A stretch of DNA of 64,000 nt, taken from NCBI GenBank assembly GCA_951406725.2, contig OX597843.1:20522001-20586000 (forward strand). The letters are read 5' to 3'. Below are positions 10,236 to 55,923 of the stretch, piece after piece (position 1 is the stretch's first letter; each line of letters starts with the position of its first letter). Under the pieces are notes generated by a model that searched no databases, was not told where the DNA came from, and saw only the letters and a list, made by a program, of their open reading frames with translations. This DNA comes from Octopus vulgaris (taxonomy: Eukaryota). The position numbers were made by a program, and so were the translations under genes.

Positions 10236-10302
<67 letters not shown>

Positions 10303-10375
10303 AAAGTTGAGTTGTGGGGTATCGCACGAGCGGAATTATAAGAAGGTTTGAAAATGCAATTTAAAAGATGTTTAT

Positions 10376-10421
10376 TTACTTAACCGGTTTCACTCTTTGG
10401 AAAAAAGATTGTCAAAAGTAA
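10376..10421 (-). ncRNA. Minimal type I hammerhead-like motif, U3-A8 core variant
   Basis: Reverse complement reads TTACTT TTGACAA T-stemII-T GAAA CCGG TT AAGTAA. Confidence 0.55.
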
Positions 10422-11249
10422 CATATGGAAGTTTGGTTGCGTTAATTATTGGTTGTTGCAAATTGCTACATTACATGTATATATACAGTCTTTGGTAACA
10501 GGGACATGTTAAGGACATAAAAATGTACAACAGTATGATGAGAATATAAAGAGGTTTAACAAGCTCATTGAAAAAATGGGCAGAAAAGATTAAAACAAAT
10601 ATATTATACATCTCAGCGTAATTTCCAGGAGGAATTATCAAAAAAAGTTCAGTACAGAATATTATGAATTCAAAAAGATTTTTACATTAAGATTTGCATT
10701 AATGTAGTGGCGAGGTTGTTTACTGACCTGTCCGTTTTAGCAGAAATGTGGAATTGAAAAAGATGTACCCGTTTTTTTCTTTTTTTGGCTCTCCTTCAAG
10801 CATCAATGATTTGGGGGTTAGGATGAGGTGAATATGTGTGTCTCTGCGTGTATGTGTGCGTGCATACATATACGTGTGGTGTGAATAGATGTGTCTGTGT
10901 GTCTGTAGTATTTGGTCAGATGGTGTCTGTTTGTCAAGTGTGTGTGGTTGTCATGGTGTTGTGTGTGCGTGTGTGTGCGCGCGTGTGTGTGTGTGAGTGC
11001 GTGTGTACGCATGTATGATTGTGGATGGCATTTGACATGGTGCTGCGTGTGTATATATGTGCCTGTATGGAGGTGAGATCGGTGTGAGTGTGTGTGTCCC
11101 TGTGTGTGTGCATATACACGTATACAAGTGTCTGCGTGTGTGTGGGGGCTGTTTTTGATTGGTTCCAGGGTGGTGAAAATAGATGTGTGTTGTTTAAAGA
11201 ATTTTTGGGGGTAGGATGGTGTGTGTATATATGCGTATATATGAGGGAT

Positions 11250-11598
11250 CGACGTACAAGTTCCGATCGGGACACGCATTCATCATAAACAATAATTCAC
11301 GTGCGCATCACAAAATTTACTCTACGTCATAAGGTGTGAAGGATGCCACGAAGACTACATAGGGCAAACGAGCCTTACCCTCAGAGAAAGAATGACAGTT
11401 CACCGACAACAACTGAGGGACCCCTCCACAAGACAGATGCCACTAAGTGGACACTTAGACCTTGGTGCACACAATAAGTCCCCCAAATTATTAGTCATCC
11501 CTCTATACCAATGCTCGGACAACACCACAGACCAAACCCGAATAAATAGGGAAAGTAATCTTATTCAAAAATACAGACCACAACTAAACATACTCTAA
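11250..11598 (+). pseudogene. GIY-YIG endonuclease C-terminal fragment of a Penelope-like element
   Basis: LLY-(10 aa)-YIG motif, conserved R..H, and a terminal E..I....P.LN. Confidence 0.85.
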
Positions 11599-11739
11599 CA
11601 TACCCCCTAGGCACACATCCAGAACAAGCACACAAAGACACGCGCACACTCGCAACGTATCATGCAAGCGGACACATGCACGCATCGGCACACATAGGGC
11701 GCACTGGCAGGCATTGACCACACACACACGCATGCATCA

Positions 11740-12036
11740 TATATATGTATGTTATGTATGTATGTGTGTATTGTGTGGATTGTGTGTGAGTGTGTGCGTT
11801 GTGTGTATGTGTGCGCGAGTGTGTGTGTGTGTGCATTGTCTGTTTGTATGTATTTATATGTTTATATGTTTTATATATATGTATATATGTGTGTGTTGTG
11901 TGTGTGTATGCATTGTATATGTGTATATGTGAGTGCATTGTTTGTGTGTGTGTGTGGTATGTAGATATATATGTGTGTGTACACTATATTTTTGTATTTT
12001 GTGTGTGTGCATTATATATATGTATGTGTATATGTG

Positions 12037-12073
<37 letters not shown>

Positions 12074-12760
12074 GCATTGTGTACATGTATATCATATGTA
12101 TGTGTGTTGTATATGCATAAATACATGTATATACATTATATGTATATATATGTATGCATTGTGTATGTGTATGTTATGTGTATATATGTTATATGTATGT
12201 GTATATGTATATGTATACATTGTATGTATGTATATTGTGTGTATATGTGGTATATTTATGTATGTGTATGTAAATATTATATATATGTATATATGTATAT
12301 ATGTATATGCATTGTCTATATATATATATTATATGTATGTATTGTGTATGTATGTTATATGTATATATTGTGTATGTGTATTATATATATGCTGTGAATG
12401 TGTATTGTATGTATATATGTGTTAGGTGTATATGTGTTGTATTATATCATGTATGTATGTGTGCGTGTGTTGTGTGTGTGTGTGTGTTGTGTGTGTGTGT
12501 GTTGTGTGTGTGTTATATGTGTGAATATTACATATAAATATATGTTATATATGTGTGTAGTGTGTGTTCTGTATGTATGTGTGTTGTGTGTATGTGTGTG
12601 TGTTGTGTGTGTGTATATTATGTGTGTATGTGTGTTGTGTGTGTGTGGAGTGTGTGTGCGTGGGGGGGGGCTGAGATATGTGTGTGTGTGTGGTGTGTAT
12701 GTGTATGATGTATATGTGTGTGTGTGCATATATATATGTATATGTAGTGTGTGTGTATGG
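11740..12760. repeat. Degenerate (TG)/(TA) compound microsatellite, about 1 kb
   Basis: Direct inspection; source of the spurious Cys/Val/Tyr ORFs. Confidence 0.95.
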
Positions 12761-13596
12761 CCCGCACACACGCGTAGATGCGCACGGGCGGGCACGCATA
12801 TATACACACACCATCCTACCCCCAAAAATTCTTTAAACAACACACATCTACTTTCACCACCCTGGAACCAATCAAAAACAGCCCCCCCACACACGCAGAC
12901 GCTTGTATACGTGTATGTGCATGCACACATGGACACACACACTCACACCGATCTCGCCTCCATGCAGGCACATATATACACACGCAGCACCATGTCAAAT
13001 GCCATCCACAATCATACATGCGTACACACACACACACGCGCACACACACGCACACACAACACCATGACAACCACACACACTTGACAAACAGACACCATCT
13101 GACCAAATACTACAGACACACAGACACATCTATTCACACCACACGTATATGTATGCACGCACACATACACGCAGAGACACACATATTCACCTCATCCTAA
13201 CCCCCAAATCATTGATGCTTGAAGGAGAGCCAAAAAAAGAAAAAAACGGGTACATCTTTTTCAATTCCACATTTCTGCTAAAACGGACAGGTCAGTAAAC
13301 AACCTCGCCACTACATTAATGCAAATCTTAATGTAAAAATCTTTTTGAATTCATAATATTCTGTACTGAACTTTTTTTGATAATTCCTCCTGGAAATTAC
13401 GCTGAGATGTATAATATATTTGTTTTAATCTTTTCTGCCCATTTTTTCAATGAGCTTGTTAAACCTCTTTATATTCTCATCATACTGTTGTACATTTTTA
13501 TGTCCTTAACATGTCCCTGTTACCAAAGACTGTATATATACATGTAATGTAGTAATTTGCAACAACCAATAATTAACGCAACCAAACTTCCATATG

Positions 13597-13641
13597 TTAC
13601 TTTTGACAATCTTTTTCCAAAGTGTGAAACCGGTTAAGTAA
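13597..13641 (+). ncRNA. Minimal type I hammerhead-like motif, U3-A8 core variant
   Basis: TTACTT TTGACAA TCTTTTTCCAAAGTGT GAAA CCGG TT AAGTAA; 6-bp stem I and palindromic stem III. Confidence 0.55.
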
Positions 13642-13678
13642 ATAAACATCTTTTAAATTGCATTTTCAAACCATCTTT

Positions 13679-13773
<95 letters not shown>

Positions 13774-20989: not shown

Positions 20990-23900
20990 TTTAGAAAAAT
21001 ATAAGTTTACAAAGATACACAGAAGTCCCTCTACGGGCAGTTTCGGAGACGCGCCTATTAATATTAGTCAATTCATATACTTAAAATTGGCACACCCCTC
21101 ATCAGGATATCCTATACATACAACACATAGTAAACGTGAACAAATACACAATTACATACCGGCCATATTCAGAAACGAGACATTACGTACTCCCAGAAAT
21201 TTTTCTCCGATCCTGAATGCTATTTTATATGCATATAATTCGATCCAGCGGCCATAGTGAATGATATGCACACAGCGCCATCTGGACCATTTCACTTCTG
21301 CACTTATTTTATTATATTTTTCTTCAATCTTATAAGTTCTCACATACATGCAAAGCCACATATTCGGGTTCAAGTCCTTGACCCTTTTTATACTAATAGC
21401 TATTTTTTCTTTTAATAATTACATTACTTTACTTTTATTTCATTTACTACTTACTATACTTACTAAATTTAATTCAATTGTTATTGCTTAGCTCTAACTT
21501 TTATTGCTATTTCTATTTCTAAATTTCTTATAGAACGTCGAGTGGATCTTATGCGTACACGCCGGTATTGCATCAGTGAACTTATTTAACACTGCGTTGT
21601 TGTAATTTTTCAATATAGTGTATGCTTCCTTTATGCATAAACCGCATCTAGTGGACCCAATTCTATAAGGGGAGGCATGCGCAAGGATAGGCCATAATAT
21701 TTTTTTAATTCATCATTCCTTTCCTTAAGGTCATTAACATGTAATGCCAATGTTGTAGAGGTCCTATATTTAGGATTGTTGAAAGAGCTCAGGTGGGATC
21801 GATACCTCTGCTTAAAGTCTACTGTGCTTCCAATATATATTTTTCTCTGGCATTCTTGAGCATCAACACTACATTTATAAACTACATTTTCCTGGCGACA
21901 ATTTCCGCTAATCGACATACTGATGAGCCCCCTACAATTACATTTCTTCAACCTGCTACGGGGTCTCGTATTACTGTTCACTCCGAAACCATGCCCCCTC
22001 CCAGTACTAGGATCCACCATATCATTTACACCATCGTTCGTACTATTTTCATGTATATGTATTGTTATATGTATATGTATTGTTATTCTTACTATTACCA
22101 TCATTCTTATTTTTATTTTTACTAATATTTGTATTACCATTATCACTACAATTAACACTATTATTACCACCCTGATAATCATTATAATCACTAATATCAT
22201 CACCAACATCATTATTATGATTATCTCTACTATTTGCATTATTTGTCATTCCAATACGCCCTTCATAATCGATTTCAGAAGACGTACTATTAATATTACT
22301 ACTATCTTCTATGTCGTTAATGAATTTTCCATTAAAGCTTCTGTCATCATTTCTATCATTATAGCGCCTTATTTTACTTCTGTTCAACGAAGCAACAATA
22401 GATCCGACATTGGGAGTGTCTGAGTAGGCCAACTTGATTGTTGACTTGTTACATATTGAATAGTACTTATGATGTTTTGGGATAATTTCCTTCAATAACT
22501 TTAAAAATAGCTTTGGTAAACCTTTCACCCTTAATGAAAAGGGAGAGGCAAACCAAGTAACTTGACGAATCCTAGACGTAGTATTAATAATGGGATTACA
22601 ATATGTTGCTTGACTTGAGTTAAGGCCATTCTGTATCTATTAGTAATATTTATATCTTTATTTTTACTACTATTAGTATTATTCTTATTCCTATTTTCAC
22701 CTTCACTAGACCTAAGCCCAACTTTAAACCTCAATTCACATTTATGACTCCTATTATTTGCAACCCTTTCCCTCCCGTTGCTGTTATCATCCATGGTATT
22801 TTCATCATTACAATTCTCATTATTAACCTTATTAACGTGGTTACCATTTACAAAACCAACCACATCACATTTATTTCTCTTATTTCCAAATCTCATTTTA
22901 TCAGCATAAATATTGGTCATTATCAGCTTGTTGCGAGTTCCTTGGGGATCATGAGGGGAGCCTCTGCTATCCGAAATCCGTTTCATATCGTCGCTGACCA
23001 TGCTGGACAATTTAATTTTTAATTTTGTATTGTGTAATTTTGTATTCAATATTATTTGTGAACCCACTCAATTTTAAGGCATTGTTGTATATTGGGGCGT
23101 GTTGATTAAAGATGTCTTTATTCGCCGATAGGTTTGAGATTCTGATAGAAATTGCAATTACAATGCTATTGATGGTCGATTTGGGATGATTTGAGTAAAC
23201 ATTGAGATATCGGAAAGATTGGTTTGGTTTTCGGAAAGGGTAGTGTAAGGGAGTATTCAGATCGAGAGTGATATCGAAGAAATTTGCCAATTTAGGATTA
23301 TTCTCAAAAACGATGCTCAAATTATAAAAGTCCTTGAGAGATTCTCTAAGGTCCTTCTTCATTCTTTCAATCTGAGGATTTGAATTATTAGAGACGATGA
23401 AAAATGCGTCATCCCAATAAATCCCTCCGGATAGCGATGGGAAAAACCGCTTAAACTTATCTAAGAAAAATAGACCAACAATATCCGTTACTTGAGCCGA
23501 GTCCGATAATCCCATAGTGATGTCGAATAAAATAAAAGAATCCGATTTAGACAAGTGGTATTTCCATAATTTATCAGAGTCATTCTTGCTGCTTGAATAA
23601 TATCAATATCTAGATTCGATATTTCAACAAAGTTCCGGGCTAAAATGATTGCTTTATTCAGTAAGATGGGAGAGATCAAGGAGTAGTAATTCGAAATATC
23701 AAATTGTACAAATGAAGATGAGTCATCACATTTAATTGTGTGAAACCACTATAAAACATCATTGGTAGATTCCCATAAGGGCAACATCGTCCTTTCACTT
23801 ATCACTGGAATAATTCTATCCAATATGGATTTGCTGATTCTACCCAAGTCAGATTTAGTTGGGCAAATTAATCGTATTGACAGTTTGGCAAGAAAATCTT

Positions 23901-26375: not shown

Positions 26376-26795
26376 CTCAGGAGTGACTGTGTGGTAAGTA
26401 GCTTGCTAACCATCCACATGGTTCCGGGTTCAGCCCCACTGCGTTGCATCTTGGGCAAGTGTCTTCTACGATAGCCTCGGGCCGACCAAATTCTTGTGAG
26501 TGGATTTGGTAGACGGAAACTGAAAAGAAGCCCGTCGTATATATGTATATATATATGCGTGTGTGTGTATGTTTGTGTGTCTGTGTTTGTCCCCCTAGCA
26601 TTGCTTGACCACCGATGCTGGTGTGTTTACGTCGCTTTCAATTAGCGGTTCGGCAAAAGAGACTGATAGAATAAGTACTGGGCTTACAAAGAATAAGTCC
26701 CGGGGTCGATTTGCTCGACTAAAAGGCGGTGCTCAAGCATGGCCGCAGTCAAATGACTGAAACAAGTAAAAGAGTAAAAGAGGGAGTAAAGAGTA
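26374..26795 (+). mobile_element. Full-length tRNA-derived SINE with internal microsatellite and (AAAGAGT)n tail
   Basis: ggctcaggagtgactgtgtggtaagtagc..ggttcagcccc head; tail gaaacaagtaaaagagtaaaagag. Confidence 0.9.
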
Positions 26796-26796
26796 T

Positions 26797-27120
26797 ATGA
26801 AAGAGTTAGGACTCTACTCAATGGAGCGAAAACCGGAGATGTATTTAGTGATATGTGTGGAAGTTACTAGGGAAGCTGTTATCAAACTTTGGAATTCAGA
26901 ATTATACCAGACCTCGAATTGGACGTCACTGCACGGTTCCAAAAGTCCCGGAGTCTCATTTAATATTAGGATAATGTACTGCAATAGTTTGGAGTTCAAG
27001 TGCTCACAGATATTTAACGCCTTGCCAACACATCTGAGGAGTGGGTGTAGATGTTTCAAGATACAACTTGACCTCTTGCTATCCAAGTGAACCAATATCA
27101 GGGTACGAAACTCAAAAGAC
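26797..27120 (+). mobile_element. CR1/L2-group LINE 3' fragment
   Basis: MKELGLYSMERK..YLVI and IFNALPTHLR..FKIQLDLLL, typical of the RT C-terminal tail. Confidence 0.5.
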
Positions 27121-27293
27121 TGCAGCGGTAGCGAACTCCGGCCAATCCCATAAACTCGGCCAGTCGAAAAGTGTTTACACTGGTAGGGCCCCACCATCGA
27201 CACAGCCTCAGGGTTAAAACATATAAAAGAATAAAAATATATATATATATATATGAATGAAGGTTTGAAAATGCAATTTTAAAAGATGTTTAT

Positions 27294-27339
27294 TTACTTG
27301 ACCGGTTTCACTTTTTTAGAAAAAGATTGTCAAAAGTAA
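27294..27339 (-). ncRNA. Minimal type I hammerhead-like motif, U3-A8 variant, GUC site
   Basis: Reverse complement: TTACTT TTGACAA T CTTTTT CTA AAAAAG T GAAA CCGG TC AAGTAA. Confidence 0.65.
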
Positions 27340-27881
27340 CATGTAAAAGCTTTGTTGTGTTAGGTACTGGTTGTCTACAATACATACACACATTCTTTGA
27401 TAATAATATGAACATTTAGATAGTATATAAATGTACAATGAGGGAGATATGTTTAGTTTGAACTGACCTGATTCACCATATTATCGTAAAAGCTTTTACG
27501 ATAATATGGTGAATCGGGTCCGTTGAAACTAAACATATATCCCTCATTGTACATTTATATACTACCAAAATGTAACCTTTTTGAACTTATAATTTTCTGT
27601 GTGTATATATACAGATACAATACCAATTTTCCTCTGAACTTTTTAATAATTCTTTCTGTAAACTGTTTTTAACATTCTCTTTTTATTATCAAAGAATGTA
27701 TATATGTATTGTAATCTTTTGTACCCAATATTTTAATGAACTTGTCAAATTTCTTTTATATTTTCCCAAGATTTTCCCTTGTAAACTGTGTTTAACATAT
27801 TCTTATTATTATCAAAGAATATATATATGTATTGTAATATTTTGTGACAACCAGTACCTAACACAACAACGATTCTACATG

Positions 27882-27926
27882 TTGCTTTTGACAATTCTTT
27901 TTAAATAAGTGAAACCGGTCAAGTAA
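27882..27926 (+). ncRNA. Minimal type I hammerhead-like motif, U3-A8 variant, GUC site
   Basis: TTGCTT TTGACAA TTCTTTTTAAATAAGT GAAA CCGG TC AAGTAA. Confidence 0.55.
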
Positions 27927-27989
27927 ATAAACATTTTTAACATTGCATTTTCAAACCTTCTTTCATATATAATTCCACTCGTGCGGTAC

Positions 27990-28490
27990 CTTAAAACTCG
28001 AAACATTACTCTACGACAGTGGGTCGTACGTAATGTTTCGAGTGTATGGGCGCACGAATATATGAGCATGTTCATCATTTTTTTCCGACATCCTCGGTAT
28101 TGTGCATTGGGAGAGTATTCAGGGAGGACGTTTGGGGAAAATGACCGGATCTGGATTCCCGAAGTATTGAATTTTTCACGACAACAATGCACCTATCACC
28201 TCAATGGTAAGTTTCTTGCCAGAAACAACATGCAATTGCTTCCGCACATGCCCTATTCGCGAGATTTACCACCTGCTGACTTGCATCCGTTTCTCAAGAC
28301 GAAAAATCAGCTCAGAGGTCGAGATCAAGAGCAAACTTAACATCATTGTCGAAGTCAAGATGTCCTCGACTCGCCTATGGGAACTAAGTCCAGGTCGGAT
28401 TTCGAAAATTGTCAGAAAAGCTGGGGCAGTTGTATTATTGCTCAGGTAACATGAGTTACTTCTATTAAACATAGCTCGTTCAGAAAATTT
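27990..28490 (+). mobile_element. mariner transposase C-terminal remnant
   Basis: HDNNAP and LLPHMPYSRDLPPADLHPFLKTKNQLRG (YSPDLAPxD-like). Confidence 0.8.
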
Positions 28491-28899
28491 ATATATACAA
28501 CGGATTTCCTTCAGTTACCGTGAACCCAATTAATTAACATACACGGGTTTGTTTTGTTGGAGTGCAGAGTACACGCAGAAGGACTGAATACAGAAGCAAA
28601 ATTCCAATCACACAGCCATGCCAACGCCTAAGAATATGCACACAAACACACACATACACACACATACATACAAAATACACACACACACGTATGACGGAAA
28701 TGGAAAATGGATTTTACGTGATACATTAATCATTACTGCTGTTTCAACCCGTCTTCAATCGGCCCCTCATGAATGAGATAATGGTCGATTGGCTGCGGTG
28801 CATCTTTCTTTGCAGATGTTTCTCATCAGTTGACATTTCAAAAAGTTCTCTGCTCAATAAACTCGGTTTCACTTGGTTCGATTATAATGTATTTCGTTA

Positions 28900-28901
28900 G
28901 T

Positions 28902-28957
<56 letters not shown>

Positions 28958-29210
28958 TTAAAAAAAATAATATTAATGATAATAATAATAATAATTTTAG
29001 TACGAATAAGGTGAAGAAGAAGAAGAAAAAGGAGAAGGAGAAGGAGAAGAAGGTGAAGAAGAACAAAAACAATGACAACAACAACAATAATAACAACGAA
29101 GAAGTCGGTGATGAAGAAAAAGTAATATAAGTAGGAAGAAAATAGATAAGATGGACAAGAAAAACAATAACAAGAAAATTCGGGAATGAGGATAGAAATG
29201 ATAATAAAAA
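28900..29210. repeat. (AAT)n and (GAA)-rich low-complexity tract
   Basis: Direct inspection. Confidence 0.9.
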
Positions 29211-29974
29211 TATATCAACATAAGTAAAATTATCAGACATACACACAGACACAAACGTACGAGGGACACACCAAACGTTGTTTTATGTTGTGGACGACTA
29301 GCTACATTAACATCCTTCCTAAAGAAATTGAAACGGAATATACAACCATTACACTGGACAGTTTGACCAAATTGACCCAGCTGTAGCTCACTGTACAAAT
29401 ATAAAATGACGACTACCAACTTCAGCACGTCATGTAATTGTAGAGTTTCAAATAACTCATATTATTGAATCAGTATCTCAAAAGAATGAGGATGAATATA
29501 TTTCTATACGTTCTTTCCTTGAAGTGAGTATAATTCTGCAAAGATATATATTTCATAATATACCCACCTATAGACACAAATACAAACATACATATTCACG
29601 TACAATCGTACACTCATACAAAAAATGTTTGACATTTATGCAGACACAAATACTCATAGACACATTCGTACACACTCTAACATGAAAATAGTAGCAGAAC
29701 ATTAGTTAGAGATAGAGAGAGAAAAAGGAAGATGAGAAGACATCAAGTTCCCAGAAATATTTCGTAAATAAAATAATATAAAAAAAATTTAGCAACTTAC
29801 ATTTCCTCTAAACTTGAGAGATTTTGAAAGGCTCCTTGTGGGATGGCTGTGATTTCATTTTCACTGAGATATCTGAAAAATAAAACACAGTTCAAAAGAA
29901 AGAGTATTAAAGAGTATTAAAAAGATTTCTTATAAAATATTGAATCTTGTATCTTTAGAATGATATTAATAAAA

Positions 29975-36100: not shown

Positions 36101-39100
36101 AATTCGACGAAATTTTAAAATATTAACATCTGATTTGTTGTTAGCACGCTTCGATTCTGTAGCGGAGAATTTTGTAACTTCAGATGCCTCTGAATAATGT
36201 ATCGGCGCAGTAATGCTACATAAATAAAAATATGGTAACATGAAGGCGGTGGTTCATGATATCAGCAGAAAATATTACAGCCAAATCAAAAAAGATGCTC
36301 TTCTAATTATTTTTGCCGTAAAAAATTGCATAGATTTTACACAGCAGAAGTTTTTGAATACAGACAGATCATCGTCCGTTTTTATCAGTATATGAGTAAA
36401 AGAAATAAATATCTAGCCGTACTGCTAATAGGCTGCAACGCTGGGGTACTGTATTATTAAACTATGAATTTAAGATAGAGTATATACCATCTAAAAAATT
36501 AGGACACGCTAATTGTTTATCAAGACCGATTTCAGAAAATGCTGAACCATTTGAAGATACCGTGATTGCTAATTTGCGAGCGGAAAATGAAATTAAAATC
36601 AAACTGTATAACTCCATGCGTGAACTGCTATTTACGTTACAAGACATAAAATTACAATTGGGAAACGATATATTCATTACAAAATGAAAGAAATGCAGAA
36701 GTGTTAAAGAGATAAAAGATATTCGAGCCTATCACAAGGTGTGACAATTTGCTGATGTATGCACAAAGTCGTAGTGCCAGCCACACTACAAAAGCAATTA
36801 CTAAAGGAATTTCATATTGAGTCAAAGGGATTTCGATAATGAAATCGTTAATGAGAATTTAGGTATAGTGGCCAACAACGGACTGTAACATTGAAGATAT
36901 AGTGATAGTATGCAATACCTGTTCTCTAGCTCCAAATACACCCGTCACAAAATGGCACCCGTGGCTGAAATCACTTAAGGTTTCATATCACTATGTTGTG
37001 GGGGAGTGTTTTTCAACGTGGTCTGAAGTGCATAAATGTAGAAAGCCGACATCTCTGGTTACAGAGATATCTGATGTTTGTTAGAAAGATCAGATCCATC
37101 TTTGATCAGCCGATACCGAGTGAAAATATAAAATAAAGGAATATTTCAAAATTCTTCAAGTTAGGTGACAATGTTTTTTAAAGACCTATAGATATAGTAA
37201 AGAAGGCTGGGAGGATGGTACAATTATTAAATAAATTGCAAGAATGATATTCCTGGTCAAAGGTAAAACAAATATCGAACATAAAAGACTTATTAACCAA
37301 CTTAAAACCTGATTCAAGGAAAAATCAGACAAAAGAAGTGAATTTCTCATGAAAGTATTGCACGACACTTTTGAGGTACCAACACAGAAACAATTTGTAA
37401 TTACACGTTCTAGCACCAGAAAACGAAACGAATGGAAACACAAGAATTGAGCCCTAAGCATAAGAGATATTAAAACTCTGAGCGACTTTAATTCTCAAGT
37501 GGAGAATTTAGGGGAGACTAATTCTATAAAGGGGAGATGCTGTGGAAAGATTCTGACAACCTTCCAAGTGACTAAAAGTGGTCTGGCACATTTCCATTAC
37601 ATGGAGAACTGTCTAGTCGTAAGCAATTGATTGTGAACAATTGATTGGTAAGCATTTTCCTATGATCCGTTGGCAGAGAGTGTCGAGTCTCATGTAATAG
37701 TAATCGTATTGCGTCGTGTAAACAGCTTCGTTAAATTATATATCCAATACCAGGATATAGAACGTATTCAGGGCCAAACTTAGCACAACACTGCGAACTG
37801 TCAATGGTCGCCTGCAGTACAGTCAGTTGTATATTATTAATGCATCAAAGAGTGGAAGCAAGTCAGAACTCCCAAAGCTCTTCTCAAAGAATGGGTGTCA
37901 TGTGCAACAAGTAAATCCTTAGGCTGAGTTATAAGGGAACATGCACTTAATTGAACAACAAGAGATTGGAGGTGCCAGGAGTGAAAATGTACAATTACGA
38001 AAGTGTGAAATACGTTTCAAAAGAACGGTTTATATAAGGCGCTACAACTTTTCCCCTTGCAATGAAATAACTGCACCCTGAAAACCCTAATTGCCACGAG
38101 AGAGAAAATAATCTGCTGCGAAATAAGACTTTTGAAAACCGATACATCATTGAATTTCTGAAGGATATGGTGGACAGACATGTATTTGGTGTAAGAGTAA
38201 CTCATGTCCGTGTCATCGAGTTTCAAAAGAGAGGGCTTTCACACTGCCATATGCTCGTAGACAAAGTGAAGATCAAAGATGATATAGACAGAATGGTACC
38301 AGAAGAAATTTCTGATTCAAATGATGAACCTGTCTTGCATGATTTAATTTTAAAAAATTCATGAGACTTAGACCTTGTGGTGTTGACAAACCCTCCTCGC
38401 AATACATGGGGAATGGTTCTTGCCAAACAAAGTTTCCCAAGAATAACAGAAATAAGACACTACTAAATATTAATGGATATCCAGAATACAGGAGGCACAA
38501 TAAAGGGAACACATCACAAGTTGGATTCCATTCTGTTGACAACTGGTATGTCGTTCCATTCTATGCTTACTTATTAAAGAAATTCCGAGCTCATATTAAT
38601 GTAGAAGTTTGCTCCTCTGTAAAAATGTCAAGAATATATGCAAGTATGTCTACAACGGTCAAGATAGCGCTTAGTTGAAGTAAGGAATGATTCAGTTGCA
38701 GAAGATGGACAGACTCAGCAACCTCATGGTTAAATCAGAAATTATGGATATGTTTCTCCTTCTGAAGCCTTATGGAGAATGTCTACGTAGAAGCTGCATG
38801 ACTCGTTCCACACTGTCTACAGATTAGCAGTTCACTTTGAAGACCAGCGGAGACTGAGCTTTCACAGAGGTAGCACTTAGAAACCTGCTCAAGAACAGAG
38901 AGATCGTGACAATACTCCCACTGCATGGTTCAAACTGAATGAGCACGATTAACGGAAGTACTTGTACCCTAACATTCCTATACGTTACGTGTTTAATGAA
39001 CGTACAAAAACATGAACACTCAGGAGAAGAATCAATACCATCGGCTGCAGAATGAACACAGTGAATCCTAAGGACGTAGAAAAATTTCATTACGATTGCT

Positions 39101-41008: not shown

Positions 41009-41069
<61 letters not shown>

Positions 41070-41085
41070 GCTGGGTCAACCCGTG

Positions 41086-43020
41086 AAACCCACCGACTAA
41101 GCAATTTTCTAGACATCTACTGAAACCCTTGCTGAAATACATCAAAAGTTTCATTAGGGAAAAAAACAATTAATGAAGAAGCAACATTGGTCACCCTCGA
41201 TGTTATCAATCTTTACACCAACATCTCCCTTGACTTTGGAATAAAAGCAATTAAATTCTGGTTGGAAAAGTACTCGCGAAATGCATAAACCAGATTTTTA
41301 TAATTGAATCCTTAAAATTTATACTTCAGAACAATTATTTTCTATTTGATGACACATACTATTGTCAGAAATGCGGAAGTGCGATGAGGACGAAAGCAGC
41401 TCCTGTTCTTGCGAACCTAATAATGGGTTATTTTGAATTCACCTTATATGAAGTATCACTTCAGAAATATGGTTACCCTTTTACCTCTACATAAAAGAAA
41501 ATTGGAAGAGATACCTAGATGACTGCTTTATCGTCTGGAAGGAGAACATCGACAAACTCTTGGATTTCAAATCAACACTAAATGACATCAATAGTAACAT
41601 ATAATTCACAATGGAATATAACAAAGAACAAGTCCCATTTTCAGACATCATGATAAAAAAAGTTAACAATGAAATCATAACTGACATTTATTATAAACCA
41701 ACTGACTCAAAACAATATATTCTCTTTAACTTATGCCACCCGAAACACATCAAAGTAAACATCCCTTTCAATGTAGCAAAAGGGTTCTGCACAATAGTGT
41801 CTGATAGAACAACTCAGGACCTTTGTCTTTAAGACCTCAAAACAATACTTATTGAAAGACAATATCCAACCTCATTTATCGACGAAAGAATTAAACGTGC
41901 CAAACAATTAGACACAAAAATACTAAGGACAACAAAACATAACACCACACCTCAACTCAAAACAGTACTATTTATATCAACACACAACCAGAGAAACAGT
42001 GAGGCATTCAACATTATTGTGCAAACTCTTCCTTACAACTTCGTTTGCTATCTAGAGATCCAAAAATGAACGACATCCTGAAAACACACAAACTCATCAA
42101 ATGCAAAAAAAAAACAAGACAAATTGCTAAAGAGACTTCTAACAAATGCGAAGCTCTACAAAGCAACCACAAAACCAACAGTTGAAAAATGTGGACGCCC
42201 AAACTGTGGAAACTGCCCCAACCTGCTTGAAGGCTCGGACTTCCTTTTCAAACAAGGACAGAGGTTTACAATTAAAACTAGTTTCACTTGAGGATCTGAG
42301 AACCTAATTCATGTAAGAACCTGCTCGGGTTGAGGACACCACTATATTAGACAAACGAGTATGACCAGGAGAAAGAGAACCACTCTACATAAAGGGCAAA
42401 TCCGTTTCCCCGAATACAGAAAATTCCTCTCAGTGAACATATAGAAACTTGTGCCGGTAACATCAAACCAAATTTCACACACTTCCCTTTTTACCAGTGC
42501 AAAGACGCAATCTCTCAACTAGAGCGTTTAAATAAAGAAACTTTTTACGTTGAAAAAGGCAAACAAATGCCTTAATATCCACGCATAACCAACTGTTATC
42601 TTTTTTATATATTTCAATTCACGATTACATCACTGTACATAAATCCCCTACTAAACAAGTTTTTTGAAACTTGTCTGTCTGTACTCCTATATAATCCGCA
42701 CCCATTACCGAAAGCTAAACCGTTATCTCCCTTAGCCACAACAAAAACAAGAATAAAGACAACCAATAACCGCCCTTTATTTATCCACTTGTGAAGTCAT
42801 TCACTCGTGAATTTCATCACACACAACATGGACAAACTTTCTAAGAAAAAATATATATTCAAAAAAGTAAAATATAATATCATGAATAGCGATATCGAAA
42901 CTGGTCAATATATTAAAAATTATATTAAAACTATGTAAGTGTGCGTATTTTACTTTTTTAATTTCTTATATATATGACAACTCACCACGTGGGGATAATC
43001 GAAATTCCTCTTTTCTGTTA
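41086..43020 (+). mobile_element. Penelope-like element (Neptune-type), 5'-truncated, degenerate
   Basis: LDVINLYTNI, RYLDDCFI, YYKPTDSKQY..CHPKH, KCGRPNCGNCP linker, NLIHV.TC..HYIRQT (GIY-YIG-like). Starts at a (TA)n tract. Confidence 0.9.
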
Positions 43021-45789: not shown

Positions 45790-48330
45790 TTTGTGTGAGG
45801 ATGCTCTTGAGTGCTACTGGTAAATCCTCCAATAGATGATACACAAGATAGCAATCCCTCCACACTATCTATCAAAAACCGCATTATCCACATATGGAAT
45901 GAAAAACGTAAAGCCAGAAACTTTTCTTTCTGCAATACGATTAAAAACAACCACAAGACAGAAATCTAGGAACGCTGGCTAAACTCTACACCAATAATTT
46001 TGCCTCGTAAATTCCAACTTAAACGTATTCCAAAGAAGCCGACAAAGGAAGTGCGGTAGTAGTGATGAATACAGAATACTACAAATATTTAACACTTTCC
46101 ATGTTGGAAAATAATATTTACTATTAGAAGTTAATACAATACAACCCACAGAAAACACTGAAAAACTTGCCCTCCTTACTCAAAATTCATGGAAAGGGTC
46201 TCACTAAATTTGAAATAGACTTTTTACCCAATTTTAAATACGGACCCAGTCTATTCTACGGATTACCCCCCCCCCAAATAAAATATCCTCACATTTGTGA
46301 AGCCTGCAAAGTCTCTACAAGCCTATGCATTAATGTCCCTTCCTCTACTGACCTCAAAATGAGACCCATCATAGCTGGGCCTTCTTGTGAAACCCACCGT
46401 TTCAGCAATTTCCTCGACATCTAACACAAAACGTTTTTTTAAAAATATGTGAAAAGCTTTATCAGGGATGACCTAGACATGCTGAACCACCTCCCGAATA
46501 CATTAAAGGAAGGAACCATGCTGGTGTCTTTCGATGTGGTGAATCTGTACACCAATATCCCACATGAGTATGGTATAGAAGCAATCACATCCTGGCTAGA
46601 AAAATACCCAGAAGAGATCCCAGGATACATAAACCACAGATTGATAATCGAAGCACTCAAATTCGTCCTGCTGAAAAACTATTTCATGTTCGATACAACT
46701 TACTATCGAAAACAATGTGGAATTGCAATGGGAACCTGAGCTGCTCCAGTGATTGCAAACCTTGTAATGGGTTACCTAGAACTGAAGTTATACTAATCAT
46801 CACTAGAAAATTATGGCGCCTCTTTTAATTGCTATTTAAAGGAGAATTGGAAGAGGTATTCGGATGATTGCTTCATACTTTGGAAAGACAGCATGGACAA
46901 ACTCCTTGATTTGAACGTAATGCTTAACAACATACATAGCAATATACAATTCACTATGGAACACAACAGTAAACAACTCCCTTTTCTAGACATGATAATT
47001 AAAATAGTTAACCACAACATAGAAACAGATATCTTTTATAAATCGACAGATTCTAAACAATACCTATTGTTTGCCACCCCAAACACATAAAAATTAATAC
47101 ACCTTTTAATCTGGCGAAAAGAATCTGTACCATAGTTTCGGATACATATATTCTTGAACAAAGACTTCTTGAACTTAGATCAACACTAACTAAAAGACAT
47201 TACCCAATCTCATTAATAAATTATGGCATTAGAAGAGATCAGGAAATAGATATACAAATATTAAGGCAAGCCAGCCGAAATTATAAACCAGACTTAAAAA
47301 TACTCCCGTACATTTCCACACATAACCCTAGAAACATCGAAGCCTTCAATATTATCACCCAAAATCTTCTCATCCTCACAGAAGACAAAACAACGAACGA
47401 AATTTTAAGCTCATACAAAATTTATAAAAAGCAAACTACAACCCAAGTCACTGAAAAAGTATTAACCAGCGTAAGACTATATCCACTAACAACAGAGCCA
47501 AAAGTGAAAAAATGTGGTCGTCTCAACTGTGGAACATACCGCAACGTTTTGGATGGTTCATAATTCCTCTTCAAGCAGGGTGAAATATTTAAGATCAAAT
47601 CAAATTTCACCGGACACTCTGAAAATCTAATCTATACCATGACTTGCTTAGGATGTGGTAAGCACTATATTGGACAAACAGGAATATCCCTCCGTCGAAG
47701 AACCACCATGCAAAAGGAAGAAATTCTCCACCCACAATACAGACAGTGACAGCTTAGTGAACACATAGAAAGGTGTGCTAGGATTCCTAATCCTAATTTC
47801 CAAATTTTCCACTTCTATCAATGTTCACAGAACACCTCAATGCAACAAAGGTTGAATAAAGTGACAATTTCCATCAATAAATATATTCCCCAACTGAATA
47901 TAAACACACAACTTAATACAGAACACTACTATCCCTTCAATTAACACCATAAACACCAATACATTCCTTACACCATTCACATTAAAATTCTATATCGAAC
48001 CTTACTGCACAAAATCCAGAACAACTTACCTCCCTTACAAATAATCTTTTTATTCAGGCGCTATTAGACCTAACACCGTTCATTAGCCGGCGTTCATTCA
48101 AAGCAATGAATAGCTTATGACGAAAGCATGGTATGCTTTCTGACTCTTTATTCATCTCATAATAATGACTTTTATGACTCTTATTACTACCTCAGTCCAT
48201 CTAAACGTATATATATGTCGTTAGCTTTCATAAAAAGCTTTTTCTTGTTTTATTTACAATGTGCATTTTCGTTGATTTTTCATATTTTCCCCTTACATTT
48301 ACACGTGTATTTCCTAATTTCTTCTTGTAA
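45790..48330 (+). mobile_element. Penelope-like element (Neptune-type), degenerate
   Basis: KEADKGSAVVVMN, MRPIIAGPSCETHR, SFDVVNLYTNIP, GIAMGT, RYSDDCFI, KCGRLNCGT, NLIYTMTCLGCGKHYIGQT, PQLN. Confidence 0.93.
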
Positions 48331-52889: not shown

Positions 52890-53950
52890 GTTTATTTCTT
52901 TCCACTTAATGTCTCTCTCGGTACAAAATTTATCAGCGTGTCCACTCTCAGCAAAATCCGAAGAAAAGTGGTAAGGTTATGTCATAAAATAGAATCCATT
53001 TGACCATTTACATGAAAATATTCCATTGCCATTTAAATCTCAATACATCTTATAAATAATCGACGTTTCATATGTGGAAGTGCTTAATTTTACTCACTGT
53101 TCAATTTTCTTCAAAATCAGTTCATTATTTTATTGTGAATGATTTTGACGATTGCTGCCTTTCATCATTTTAATTTTAATTCTACTTCATGACTCCGGCC
53201 ATAAATTTTACCTAAAAGTCAAAGTTTATCAAAATCGGATGAATTGTGTAAAAGTTACAGCATAATATACTAATCCTATGGGTAACTGCATACAAAAAGC
53301 CTATTGATATTTTAAAAATCTCTCTCTCACACGCAGTTATCGATTTTTGTCAACTCTTAATGCTGATATCAACTAATGGACATGAACTGTAATCACGTGT
53401 AAAATTCCTACAAAATCGTTAAGAATGTCTGTAAAGAAATGCTTATGTACATTTGTACCCTTTTCGAGCTCTTTTGAATTAAATACATACATTTCCCGTA
53501 TCCCCCACCAATCATTTACCTACACTTCATATTTCATTAAAATCGGATGAAAAATATGTAATTTACGGCCAAAAATAAATCCCCTATGGGTATTTAGACG
53601 CAAAACGTCTATTGATTTTATAAAACCACTGCTCCGGCGCAATTACCATTTTTTTTCTCAACGTCATATACTGAAATCAACTCACTGCCATGAGCCTTGC
53701 TCACTCATCGATTTTCATTGAAATTGGACAAAAAATGCAAAAGCTGCTGGGAAAATAACATCGTTTTGGGAATATGCGAGGTTAATGAACACAATTTTAA
53801 AATGTCGCCATTGTTTTCAAATTACGTTTCACATTTTGTTTGAAAAAAAGTGTGGATTACAATGGTGATCACCGATTTCCAAAATTTTTCATTCAAAACT
53901 TTTGTTAATGCGTCGTTCAAAAGCATTGGCCAAAATCGGTACCGATTGGG
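52890..53950 (+). repeat. Interspersed repeat with degenerate internal units (aaaatcggatga..cctatggg..ctattgat)
   Basis: Motif set recurs at ~53230 and ~53540; paralog at 13945-14610. Confidence 0.75.
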
Positions 53951-54097: not shown

Positions 54098-55923
54098 TCA
54101 TTGTGCATGTGCGAATCGGAGTTGATACTGAAGCTATAAAGACGTGTTTTTGAAGCCGTCTTAAATTGAAGATTTTTGAAACTCAGCTGTACAAGTAAGA
54201 CTTTTTGGGGGGTCTAGTGGGGGCCTGTTGTCTACCGAAATTATTTTTTGCAAACAAGAAGTCCTCACTGGATTCTGGTCTACCTGTAGCTGAGTGAATA
54301 TCTTTTCACTTAACTGTGAAAATTATTGTTTTGTGGGCGTATCCTGCCGCAAAATTTTGTTTGAGAATCGTGTTTGTCCAGGAATAACTCTGGGAATTTT
54401 TAGAAAAGATTTCAACAATATTGTTCCTGTTAAGGATTACCTATGAGAAGAAAATTGGAATGATTTGCGCTAAAATTTTGACCTGGAGTACCAAGTGTCC
54501 TTTACTGTGCTTTGAACTGCTGCTCTGTCTTCAACCCTCTTTTATTTAAAAAAAGACTCTTTATTGAACTGTTAATTTTTTTCTCCTTCCTTTTTGTTTA
54601 GACTTTTTCTCTTCCTTCTTTATCCTTAATTATTTTGTATTTTATGAAGTGTTTTTTTAACTTTTTTAAAAGAAACATGGCAAAGAACAATGGAAAGTAG
54701 GTGGAGTGGGAATTTATACCACCCAAAAGATGATTAAAAGAACTTGAAAGTAAGACGGTGGTTTTGAGGACCTACTCTAGGATCCTCGACGCCATTGCCG
54801 TTTTCAAAAAATATTAACGAAAGAGAGATGGCAGAATTTAAGCCAGCTATTAAGTTTCTCACTCGGAGGGTCAAATATGCAACCGTGTGGTACTATTTTA
54901 CTTCCCAGAAGTGGATTGTGATTTTGCGTGCCAGCTCCTGGAAGGCAATGAAATTTTGTTTCTTCCCACTTATTGTGGGAAGAAGTTGAGGAGGGCTTGG
55001 GTTTGCGGCTTTCCACCCGGTGCTGAGCCCGAATGGATTGGAGATACTATCCGCCGGGGTCTTGTGGCAGTAGCACCAAGCTCTTCAATGTAAATATTCT
55101 GCCTGCGGCTTACTGGGAGGGGTCAAAAGCTGTTTTGACCCTCTGGACCAAGTCAGCCGAAAGTCTAGTATTTCCAGACTTTTTGAGAATCGGCTGGTCC
55201 AAGTATCCGGTGATGCTTGAGGGAGCATCTCCTCCAAGTGTTATCGGTGCCTTGAACCTGGCCATATAAAAAAGAACTGTCCTCAACGGCAAAGCAAAAT
55301 CCTGGAGCGGTTAACGGAGACCTCTGTAGAAGAAGGAAAGCAGGCGGCCGAGGAGATAGAGGATGCCTCAAAGAAGAGCCGCAAAAGGAAGAAGGTGAGT
55401 AATAATGGGTGCTCACCGAAGGATTCTGGGAATGCGGGAGGGGAGGCACATGTTCCGGTCACGGACGAGATGCACCCTCCCCCAGTCAAGAAGCAAAAAG
55501 AGGATAAAGGAGAAACGGGATATTGCCGACAGTCGGAGATATGAAGCCTCATCGGTGTGGGTCGTGCCACTGGCGGGGTGGCGTGGGTAGACACACTTGG
55601 TAAGAATTGTTCCGCCAATGGTAGGATTGACTACCTCGGACCTGGAGGAGAAAGAACTGCTGTTCTTCTGTTATAGAGGAGGAGTGGTGGAAAAGGTGGT
55701 GGTAGAACACTACAAGAGAGTACCTTTGGCCTTCGCACGGTAACCCGAATGGCCTCCGCAGATGGCTGTGGAGTTCATAACGTTGCGCATGTTTTATAGG
55801 CTGGGGGGACTAAAAGAGGAATATCACTCGTGGCCGGGTGACGCCAACTCGGAGCATGCCTTGATTTTAAAGCTAGCATGGGCGATGGTGGAGTACACGT
55901 ACACAAGCGATGATGAGGATTGA
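54098..55923 (+). mobile_element. Non-LTR retrotransposon 5' region with gag-like ORF1 (CCHC knuckle), degenerate, no ORF2
   Basis: ATG at 54677; FLPTYCGK..AWVCGFPPG..WIG; YPVMLEG..KCYRCLEPGHIKKNCP (55239-55283). Begins right after a truncated SINE head (54061-54097). Confidence 0.7.

Follow-up and report, generated by a model that had tools for sequence, protein, structure and literature searches.

The whole 64-kb stretch of DNA analyzed here, which we call the window, carries four short motifs resembling the type I hammerhead ribozymes of Penelope-like elements (PLEs), with U3-A8 in place of C3-G8 in the core, and two of them lie in a 0.7-kb fold-back. The locus raises the question of whether a PLE lineage uses this variant core throughout, and whether the fold-back is a mobile unit of its own. 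When type I hammerheads with any of the four possible cores were sought on either strand, the window gave exactly four U3-A8 motifs (core starts at 13603(+), 27888(+), 27333(-), and 10415(-)), all having six stem I pairs, GAAA, CCGG, and UH, against 0.01 such motifs per window expected by chance from 100 Markov shuffles of the window. The original prediction was exact in the coordinates, the type I order, and the UUGACAA core of all four, and also in the U/U at positions 10.1/11.1, stem II opening with U.U and then C-G. The GUH site which it described is present in each, the cleavage triplet being GUC in the 27-kb copies and GUU in the 10-13-kb copies. The motifs, with the parts of the forward 27-kb copy, are as follows:

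27882..27926 (+): type I minimal hammerhead motif, predicted cut after C27920
27882-27887/27921-27926 (+): stem I of this motif
27888-27894 (+): its U3-A8 core
27895-27910 (+): its stem II region, decayed in this copy
27911-27914 (+): its GAAA
27914-27919 (+): its palindromic stem III
27294..27339 (-): second hammerhead motif, in the inverted arm; family-typical copy with a 6-bp stem II closed by U.U; GUC
13597..13641 (+): hammerhead motif with U3-A8 core at 13603-13609; GUU
10376..10421 (-): hammerhead motif with U3-A8 core at 10415-10409; GUU

No match to CUGANGA or CUGANAA passed the same both-strand scan of the window, and UUGANGA gave one weak match at 53114(-). At E<=10, Rfam recognized no hammerhead in the window, and at E<=0.5 none in six loci, two C3-G8 controls among them; because these controls are blank too, the Rfam result is not specific to U3-A8. 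The motifs had been taken as four copies of one family. Their common lineage stands, but the two elements are of different subfamilies, the 27-kb and 10-13-kb elements being 74% identical over ~300 bp, with identity rising to 87% in the final 116 bp.

The 10-13-kb element retains the GIY-YIG remnant that had been predicted, which lies at 11296-11598(+) and exceeds the Pfam cut-off (PF01541, 28.9 bits against 22.6). By its sequence, 10296-13686 is an element copy: it is truncated at 11242 and carries an inverted 3' end. Its features, and the layout of a related locus (L074) elsewhere in the genome, are given below:

11242..13686 (+): 5'-truncated PLE (subfamily A2-like) with the end of the RT-EN ORF, a ~2-kb microsatellite-rich 3' UTR, the hammerhead, and a terminus at (TA)n
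11296..11598 (+): GIY-YIG endonuclease domain with CCHH, 93% identical to the domain of intact elements
10296..11236 (-): inverted 3' end of the element, 97% identical to 12794-13677; tail at ~10300-10339
L074, in order: hammerhead with predicted cut at 1689, ORF1 from 1810, 776-aa RT-EN, 2-kb 3' UTR, second hammerhead, tail, (TA)n

With the EN of the window as query, 150 matches of 92-100% identity were scored in the genome, about 30 of them with open frames of at least 770 aa, and eight of the 20 fetched loci hold direct hammerhead pairs 5,812-5,830 bp apart. The intact element is a 5.82-kb head-to-tail unit having one U3-A8 hammerhead at each end, on the sense strand and in both pLTRs, and the predicted cut precedes the start of ORF1 by about 120 nt. 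The 776-aa RT-EN frame of L074 has the DKG motif, a C-x4-C-x2-C linker, and GIY-YIG. As in EN+ PLEs, an RT with DKG is joined to a C-terminal GIY-YIG with CCHH, the pLTRs are in tandem, truncated copies are inverted, the tail is one-sided, and the flanks are (TA)n; the CX2-5CxxC linker between RT and EN is present as C-x4-C-x2-C in P0001 and P0003. This RT-EN linker motif points to a lineage of the Neptune or Nematis type. A 1,298-aa frame considered as an ORF1-RT fusion was rejected as (TA)n read-through. Three further PLE remnants lie in the window at 45844-47902(+), 41067-42557(+)/60765-62238(-), and 21634-23602(-), all of them free of hammerhead matches in the relaxed scan, along with a Helitron helicase-like N-terminal fragment and a zinc knuckle (38071-38361(+) and 55221-55541(+)). 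The host genome, of 2.8 Gb, is rich in microsatellites.

In the intact elements, ORF1 (about 447 aa from ATG) and the RT-EN ORF overlap in the -1 frame, the overlap lying at a U UUU UUA heptamer (L074:1810-5423; L048:2561; L157:545; L190). The arrangement is found in 13 of the 20 A2 junctions, the other seven being off by one homopolymer base, and contigs of two public runs agree over the ORF1/ORF2 junction without gaps. The T-run and 'FFR' at the start of ORF2 are also present in families C and M. Going by the reading frames, a programmed -1 frameshift in an EN+ PLE is possible; the legend of Fig. 1 in PMC8557442 mentions -1 frameshifts, the clade not being named in that legend.

The extent to which the variant core is used was estimated by exact counts over the genome. 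With CCGG as stem III, 8,880 U3-A8, 294 C3-G8, 245 C3-A8, and 194 U3-G8 matches were obtained (controls, in the same order, 72, 35, 39, and 29), and with SWWS as stem III, 7,853 U3-A8 (control 4,413) versus 6,470 C3-G8 (control 1,046). The excess over controls is about 12,200 U3-A8 versus 5,700 C3-G8 (~2:1) for these two stem III classes, two-base palindromes being left out. A genome-wide predominance of 30:1 was considered and rejected, as it is true of the CCGG class only. The lineage of the window alone has 2,117 exact U3-A8 matches (control 0), and its stem II occurs in none of the 100 listed of the 294 C3-G8 matches. These counts, together with the intact elements having the same core at both ends, bear out the prediction that U3-A8 is the state of the whole lineage, and the lineage would accordingly be missed by CUGANGA patterns, as had also been proposed.

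To avoid circularity, 40 loci were chosen by GIY-YIG alone with the bases at 3 and 8 left free. A downstream motif was found in 16 of these, comprising 13 U3-A8, three C3-G8, and no mismatched pair, and the families so chosen include other palindromic stem III sequences, namely CATG, GCGC, and GTAC. Stem I was compared in 15 family representatives from this genome: its pairs 1 and 2 are kept in all 15, with four pair types each, a degree of pairing reached by none of 5,000 shuffles; this covariation is weakened because the representatives are not independent, A1-A3 being kin and M1, M2, and N coming from a stem-filtered scan. Both stem I and the palindromic stem III covary from family to family. 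In 79 PLE loci from metagenome contigs, all 27 sense matches (25 loci) are Watson-Crick at 3-8 (21 CG, 4 UA, 1 AU, and 1 GC), and so are four of the seven antisense matches; since stem I was filtered there, only the 3-8 pair is informative in this set. The A3-U8 and G3-C8 cores, one each, are in PLE-linked motifs of contigs L228 and L240. In a quick RT tree (36 of 40 rows, four having been dropped for short RT, and unnamed rows only), three of this genome's U3-A8 families group in one clade (SH-aLRT 99), C3-G8 is the core of the nearest motif-bearing relatives from metagenomes, and five changes are required for U3-A8. Between subfamilies, the motif is 87-91% identical, the 100 nt upstream 52-69%, and the 45 nt downstream 85-98%. 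The motif is better kept than its upstream flank but no better than its downstream one, so the core is not distinct from the terminus in the lineage of the window.

Several properties of the motif bear on whether it could cut. The order of stem I, N3UGANN8A, stem II, GAAA, stem III, UH, and stem I is that of a hammerhead, the Watson-Crick 3-8 pair is kept by covariation, and stem III is short and palindromic. Features that are typical, not universal, are absent: the extra base after A9, G10.1-C11.1, and a stem II of 7-8 bp. The G10.1-C11.1 pair is usually conserved in hammerheads; in the lineage of the window it is U.U, followed by C-G in a stem II of 4-6 bp, and stem II openings of T...C or T...T occur in nine of 23 metagenome PLE motifs. 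The motif is A/U-rich. As a monomer it gains no stability over shuffled sequences (z -0.44 to +0.92), and in its best predicted fold the cleavage triplet is paired with the core. For the dimer, the hammerhead form costs 4.8-9.8 kcal/mol more than the most stable fold, as compared with 2.6 kcal/mol for family C and 3.5 kcal/mol for a C3-G8 control. These folding predictions warn that the motif of this lineage may be a weak hammerhead. Minimal PLE hammerheads are described as weakly cutting, and only as multimers (PMC4209133; review PMC6765202). Contigs of four public runs, presumed to be RNA, extend over the hammerhead and over ORF1, the predicted cut being bridged by some, though contigs are unable to show RNA ends; no intron-like joint was seen in them over the hammerhead and ORF1. 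In families B and C (L044-L051), a pyrimidine-rich stretch and CAG close the 5' strand of stem I right before the core, resembling a 3' splice site, and an intron of D. virilis Penelope is reported to end at helix I (PMC4209133).

If the motif works, read-through RNA of tandem units would carry two hammerheads of the same sense, and these would pair with each other by their stems III through ACCGGU. The paired dimer would cut after GUH, probably slowly and aided by the element's own protein, and the precursor would thereby be trimmed to unit-length RNA. Solo and inverted copies such as those in the window may be passive products of truncated reverse transcription, which need not cut. Slow, protein-assisted cleavage is our best guess, preferred because the predicted folds are weak and because the anole PLE depends on protein, its hammerhead being cut only with the element's protein in the report (PMC11167929).

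We hold it to be probable, with good confidence, that all four motifs belong to the 3' terminal region (pLTR) of a young EN-coding PLE lineage and are likely minimal type I hammerheads with a compensatory U3-A8 pair, predicted to cut as dimers through ACCGGU, the fold-back being most likely an ordinary truncated and inverted end. The copies could instead be decayed CUGANGA hammerheads, changed by CpG decay and A/T bias, since C7-A8 is the expected product of CpG decay of C7-G8 and an old G+C-rich family (L137-L140) does show decay; yet young, intact, and near-identical elements are all U3-A8, and cores with both changes are about 40 times as common as those with a single change, which leaves this reading with hardly any probability. 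CpG decay may still be the first origin of A8. The main rival, which we consider unlikely, is that the motif is derived from a hammerhead but silent, being kept in a terminal signal on which the PLE protein binds or primes. The weak predicted folding, the inhibitory pairing between core and GUC, the U.U at 10.1/11.1, and the conservation of the 45 nt downstream, which equals that of the motif, would fit such a signal. So would the anole PLE, for which the report describes insertion in vitro without need of cleavage and no reads ending at the cleavage site (PMC11167929). A silent signal is disfavored by the core, stem I pairing, and palindrome being kept across families whose stem sequences differ, and by N7 and H17 varying within the limits that catalysis allows. 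Moreover, an axolotl hammerhead with U.U at the base of stem II is reported to cleave (PMC7229834), and U3-A8 covariation is reported in natural hammerheads active in vitro (PMC3088659).

A hammerhead at the PLE terminus remains our preferred reading, and the 27-kb fold-back can be read as an inverted PLE terminus. It belongs to a sister subfamily, A1, one copy of which has a same-strand EN, 81% identical, ~1.5 kb upstream; an intact ORF for A1 was not found, a same-strand EN being present in one of 51 upstream segments, most of which reach just 1.5 kb. The original prediction gave its extent as 27255..27990, to which the tail adds at the right end, reaching about 27999. The parts of the fold-back are:

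27493..27999 (+): forward arm, the last ~480 bp of the PLE 3' UTR/pLTR (subfamily A1) and most of the PLE tail (27972-27999)
27248..27492 (-): inverted arm, the same 3' end without tail, internally deleted and ending in a (TA)n tract
27470..27515 (no strand): 46-bp loop-less palindrome, the inversion junction; in other copies the family sequence runs on upstream of the junction
26794..29470 (no strand): part of a larger duplicated block, the flanks and fold-back occurring together in 15 other C30/C31 loci at 88-94% identity

The loop-less palindrome was described correctly, as a perfect 46-mer, and the form is palindromic and ORF-less as stated, but its arms are lopsided, 27574-27796 having no partner in the left arm. 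In locus L023 the family sequence passes beyond the palindrome centre, and the centre is for this reason taken to be the inversion junction. The comparison covers the best 40 of 1,143 candidates, those 40 having been scored. Twenty-nine other loci were fetched by the hammerhead query, and both flanks recur in 15 of them (88-94% identity), the right flank in two more; all flank-sharing loci are on contig C30 (19.9-21.1 Mb) or C31, and the 15 with both flanks on C30 at 20.19-21.14 Mb or on C31. In the flank-sharing loci the hammerheads are 574-602 bp apart, and the perfect palindrome has shrunk to 8-34 bp. The fold-back had been likened to a retrozyme-type non-autonomous unit, and the same centre and 574-602 bp spacing in 16 loci (window included), the lack of an ORF, and the strong hairpin would agree with a unit moving by itself. 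Retrozymes are, however, defined as head-to-tail repeats with a hammerhead per unit (bioRxiv 10.64898/2026.07.22.740005; PMC7229834), with same-sense hammerheads and a fixed monomer inserted independently at many sites, whereas the hammerheads of the fold-back sit on opposite strands, and the 15 other loci with its centre have common flanks and are confined to C30 and C31. In addition, seven dispersed inverted pairs have spacings of 141, 233, 256, 360, 684, 733, and 813 bp, one of them with a 248-bp loop-less palindrome at another point; each hammerhead is predicted to pair fully with the antisense of the other in read-through RNA (-319.5 kcal/mol); and the A1 copy noted above joins an EN gene upstream. 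On the 40 scored of 1,143 candidates, an independently moving unit is, in our estimate, very improbable, though dispersed copies may exist among the rest, and the 0.7-kb form is most likely one 5'-truncated, inverted PLE end which would have been multiplied together with its flanks by segmental duplication. Close inverted hammerhead pairs from truncated PLEs have already been described (PMC4209133).

The window, which spans C30:20,522,001-20,586,000, is part of a segmental-duplication block near the end of contig C30 (C30:19.93-21.14 Mb), and units tens of kb apart are duplicated within it at about 90-96% identity (1880/56456, 3484/58059, and 525/35254). The left flank of the fold-back (26770-27250) bears a resemblance to a LINE 3' end, and the right flank (28000-28450) to a fragment of a mariner transposase; Pfam gave no match in these two flanks. 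A Pfam scan of 63 of the 150 candidate ORFs of the window found no host gene in the duplicated block.

Elsewhere in the genome, a separate head-to-tail family of ~359 bp fits the retrozyme layout (L034-L040, L057-L059, L270-L289). It has 407 matches, and the first 100 listed comprise, by hand count, 52 U3-A8, 42 C3-G8, six C3-A8, and no U3-G8. The U-A and C-G forms are both found in tandem arrays, and the C.A form is one clade (91/88) over five fetched loci, a trimer among them; the family E tree is not converged and is midpoint-rooted. It may be, at somewhat less than even odds, that U3-A8 is the main working core of this genome, fixed throughout one clade of Neptune-type PLEs with recent activity, that the 3-8 pair has flipped many times across PLEs, and that the ~359-bp family has crossed between U-A and C-G via a C.A mismatch subfamily which nevertheless spread to new sites. 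If true, the active site of a ribozyme would have made a compensatory walk in nature, each step of which can be assayed.

Our literature search found no report on the PLE hammerhead lineage of the window; supplementary lists may already include U3-A8 hammerheads of related hosts. The novelty originally claimed for a family-wide U3-A8 core was overstated, PLE hammerheads with U3-A8 having been reported in 2014 (PMC4209133). Judged from sequence comparisons, this is a real hammerhead family with a published core variant in a new, recently active PLE lineage. What is new here is the scale, about 12,000 excess U3-A8 versus 5,700 C3-G8 matches in two stem III classes; further new leads are a possible -1 frameshift and a retrozyme-like tandem family divided into U-A, C-A, and C-G subfamilies. 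A search restricted to CUGANGA counts too few PLE hammerheads; for the two stem III classes of this genome, it would miss roughly 12,000 motifs. The near-identical intact elements with a non-canonical core offer a testbed for the role of PLE hammerheads, that is, whether cleavage is needed and whether it is dimeric or protein-assisted. The overall importance is modest and the fold-back ordinary, and the leads on the C.A intermediate and the -1 frameshift may outweigh the main finding.

Among known systems, the Cercyon PLEs of S. mansoni have U3-A8 hammerheads, with about 1,300 matches, which the first descriptor missed (Cervera & De la Pena 2014, PMC4209133). The lineage described here resembles them, as they are described there, in type I topology, pLTR position, and palindromic stem III, and in being a multi-copy U3-A8 family which escapes the CUGANGA descriptor and consists mostly of solo or close inverted truncated copies. 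It differs in host and PLE clade and in having young intact tandem copies. U3-A8 and C3-G8 stand at about 2:1 here (two stem III classes), compared with about 1,300 against 2,000 in S. mansoni (PMC4209133). Stem II is of 4-6 bp closed by U.U here, as against 7-8 bp with G10.1-C11.1 in the known minimal PLE hammerheads of that paper, from which a stem I of up to 6 bp is a further difference (PMC4209133).

With the Neptune/Nematis EN+ PLEs as described by Craig et al. (2021, PMC8557442), the intact elements share the C-terminal GIY-YIG with CCHH, the CX2-5CxxC linker, DKG, direct pLTRs, inverted truncated copies, a tail of 30-40 bp at one end, and (TA)n targets; our elements differ from them by a 3' UTR of 2 kb rich in microsatellites and by a separate ORF1, whose overlap with the RT ORF is in the -1 frame. 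The fold-back is like the non-LTR retrozymes described in PMC7229834 and bioRxiv 10.64898/2026.07.22.740005 in being ORF-less and PLE-related with type I hammerheads, but those are head-to-tail repeats of 150-450 bp with same-sense hammerheads, whereas the fold-back is head-to-head, has no fixed family length, and spread with its flanks. In the anole Poseidon element PAc (Frangieh et al. 2024, PMC11167929), the pLTR hammerhead is likewise near the ORF start, the 3-8 pair has been shown to matter, and the tail is set by two RT start sites, as comparison suggests for our elements too. PAc is described as having a C3-G8 core and a single ORF with the cut inside it, whereas in the U3-A8 lineage the predicted cut lies in front of ORF1.
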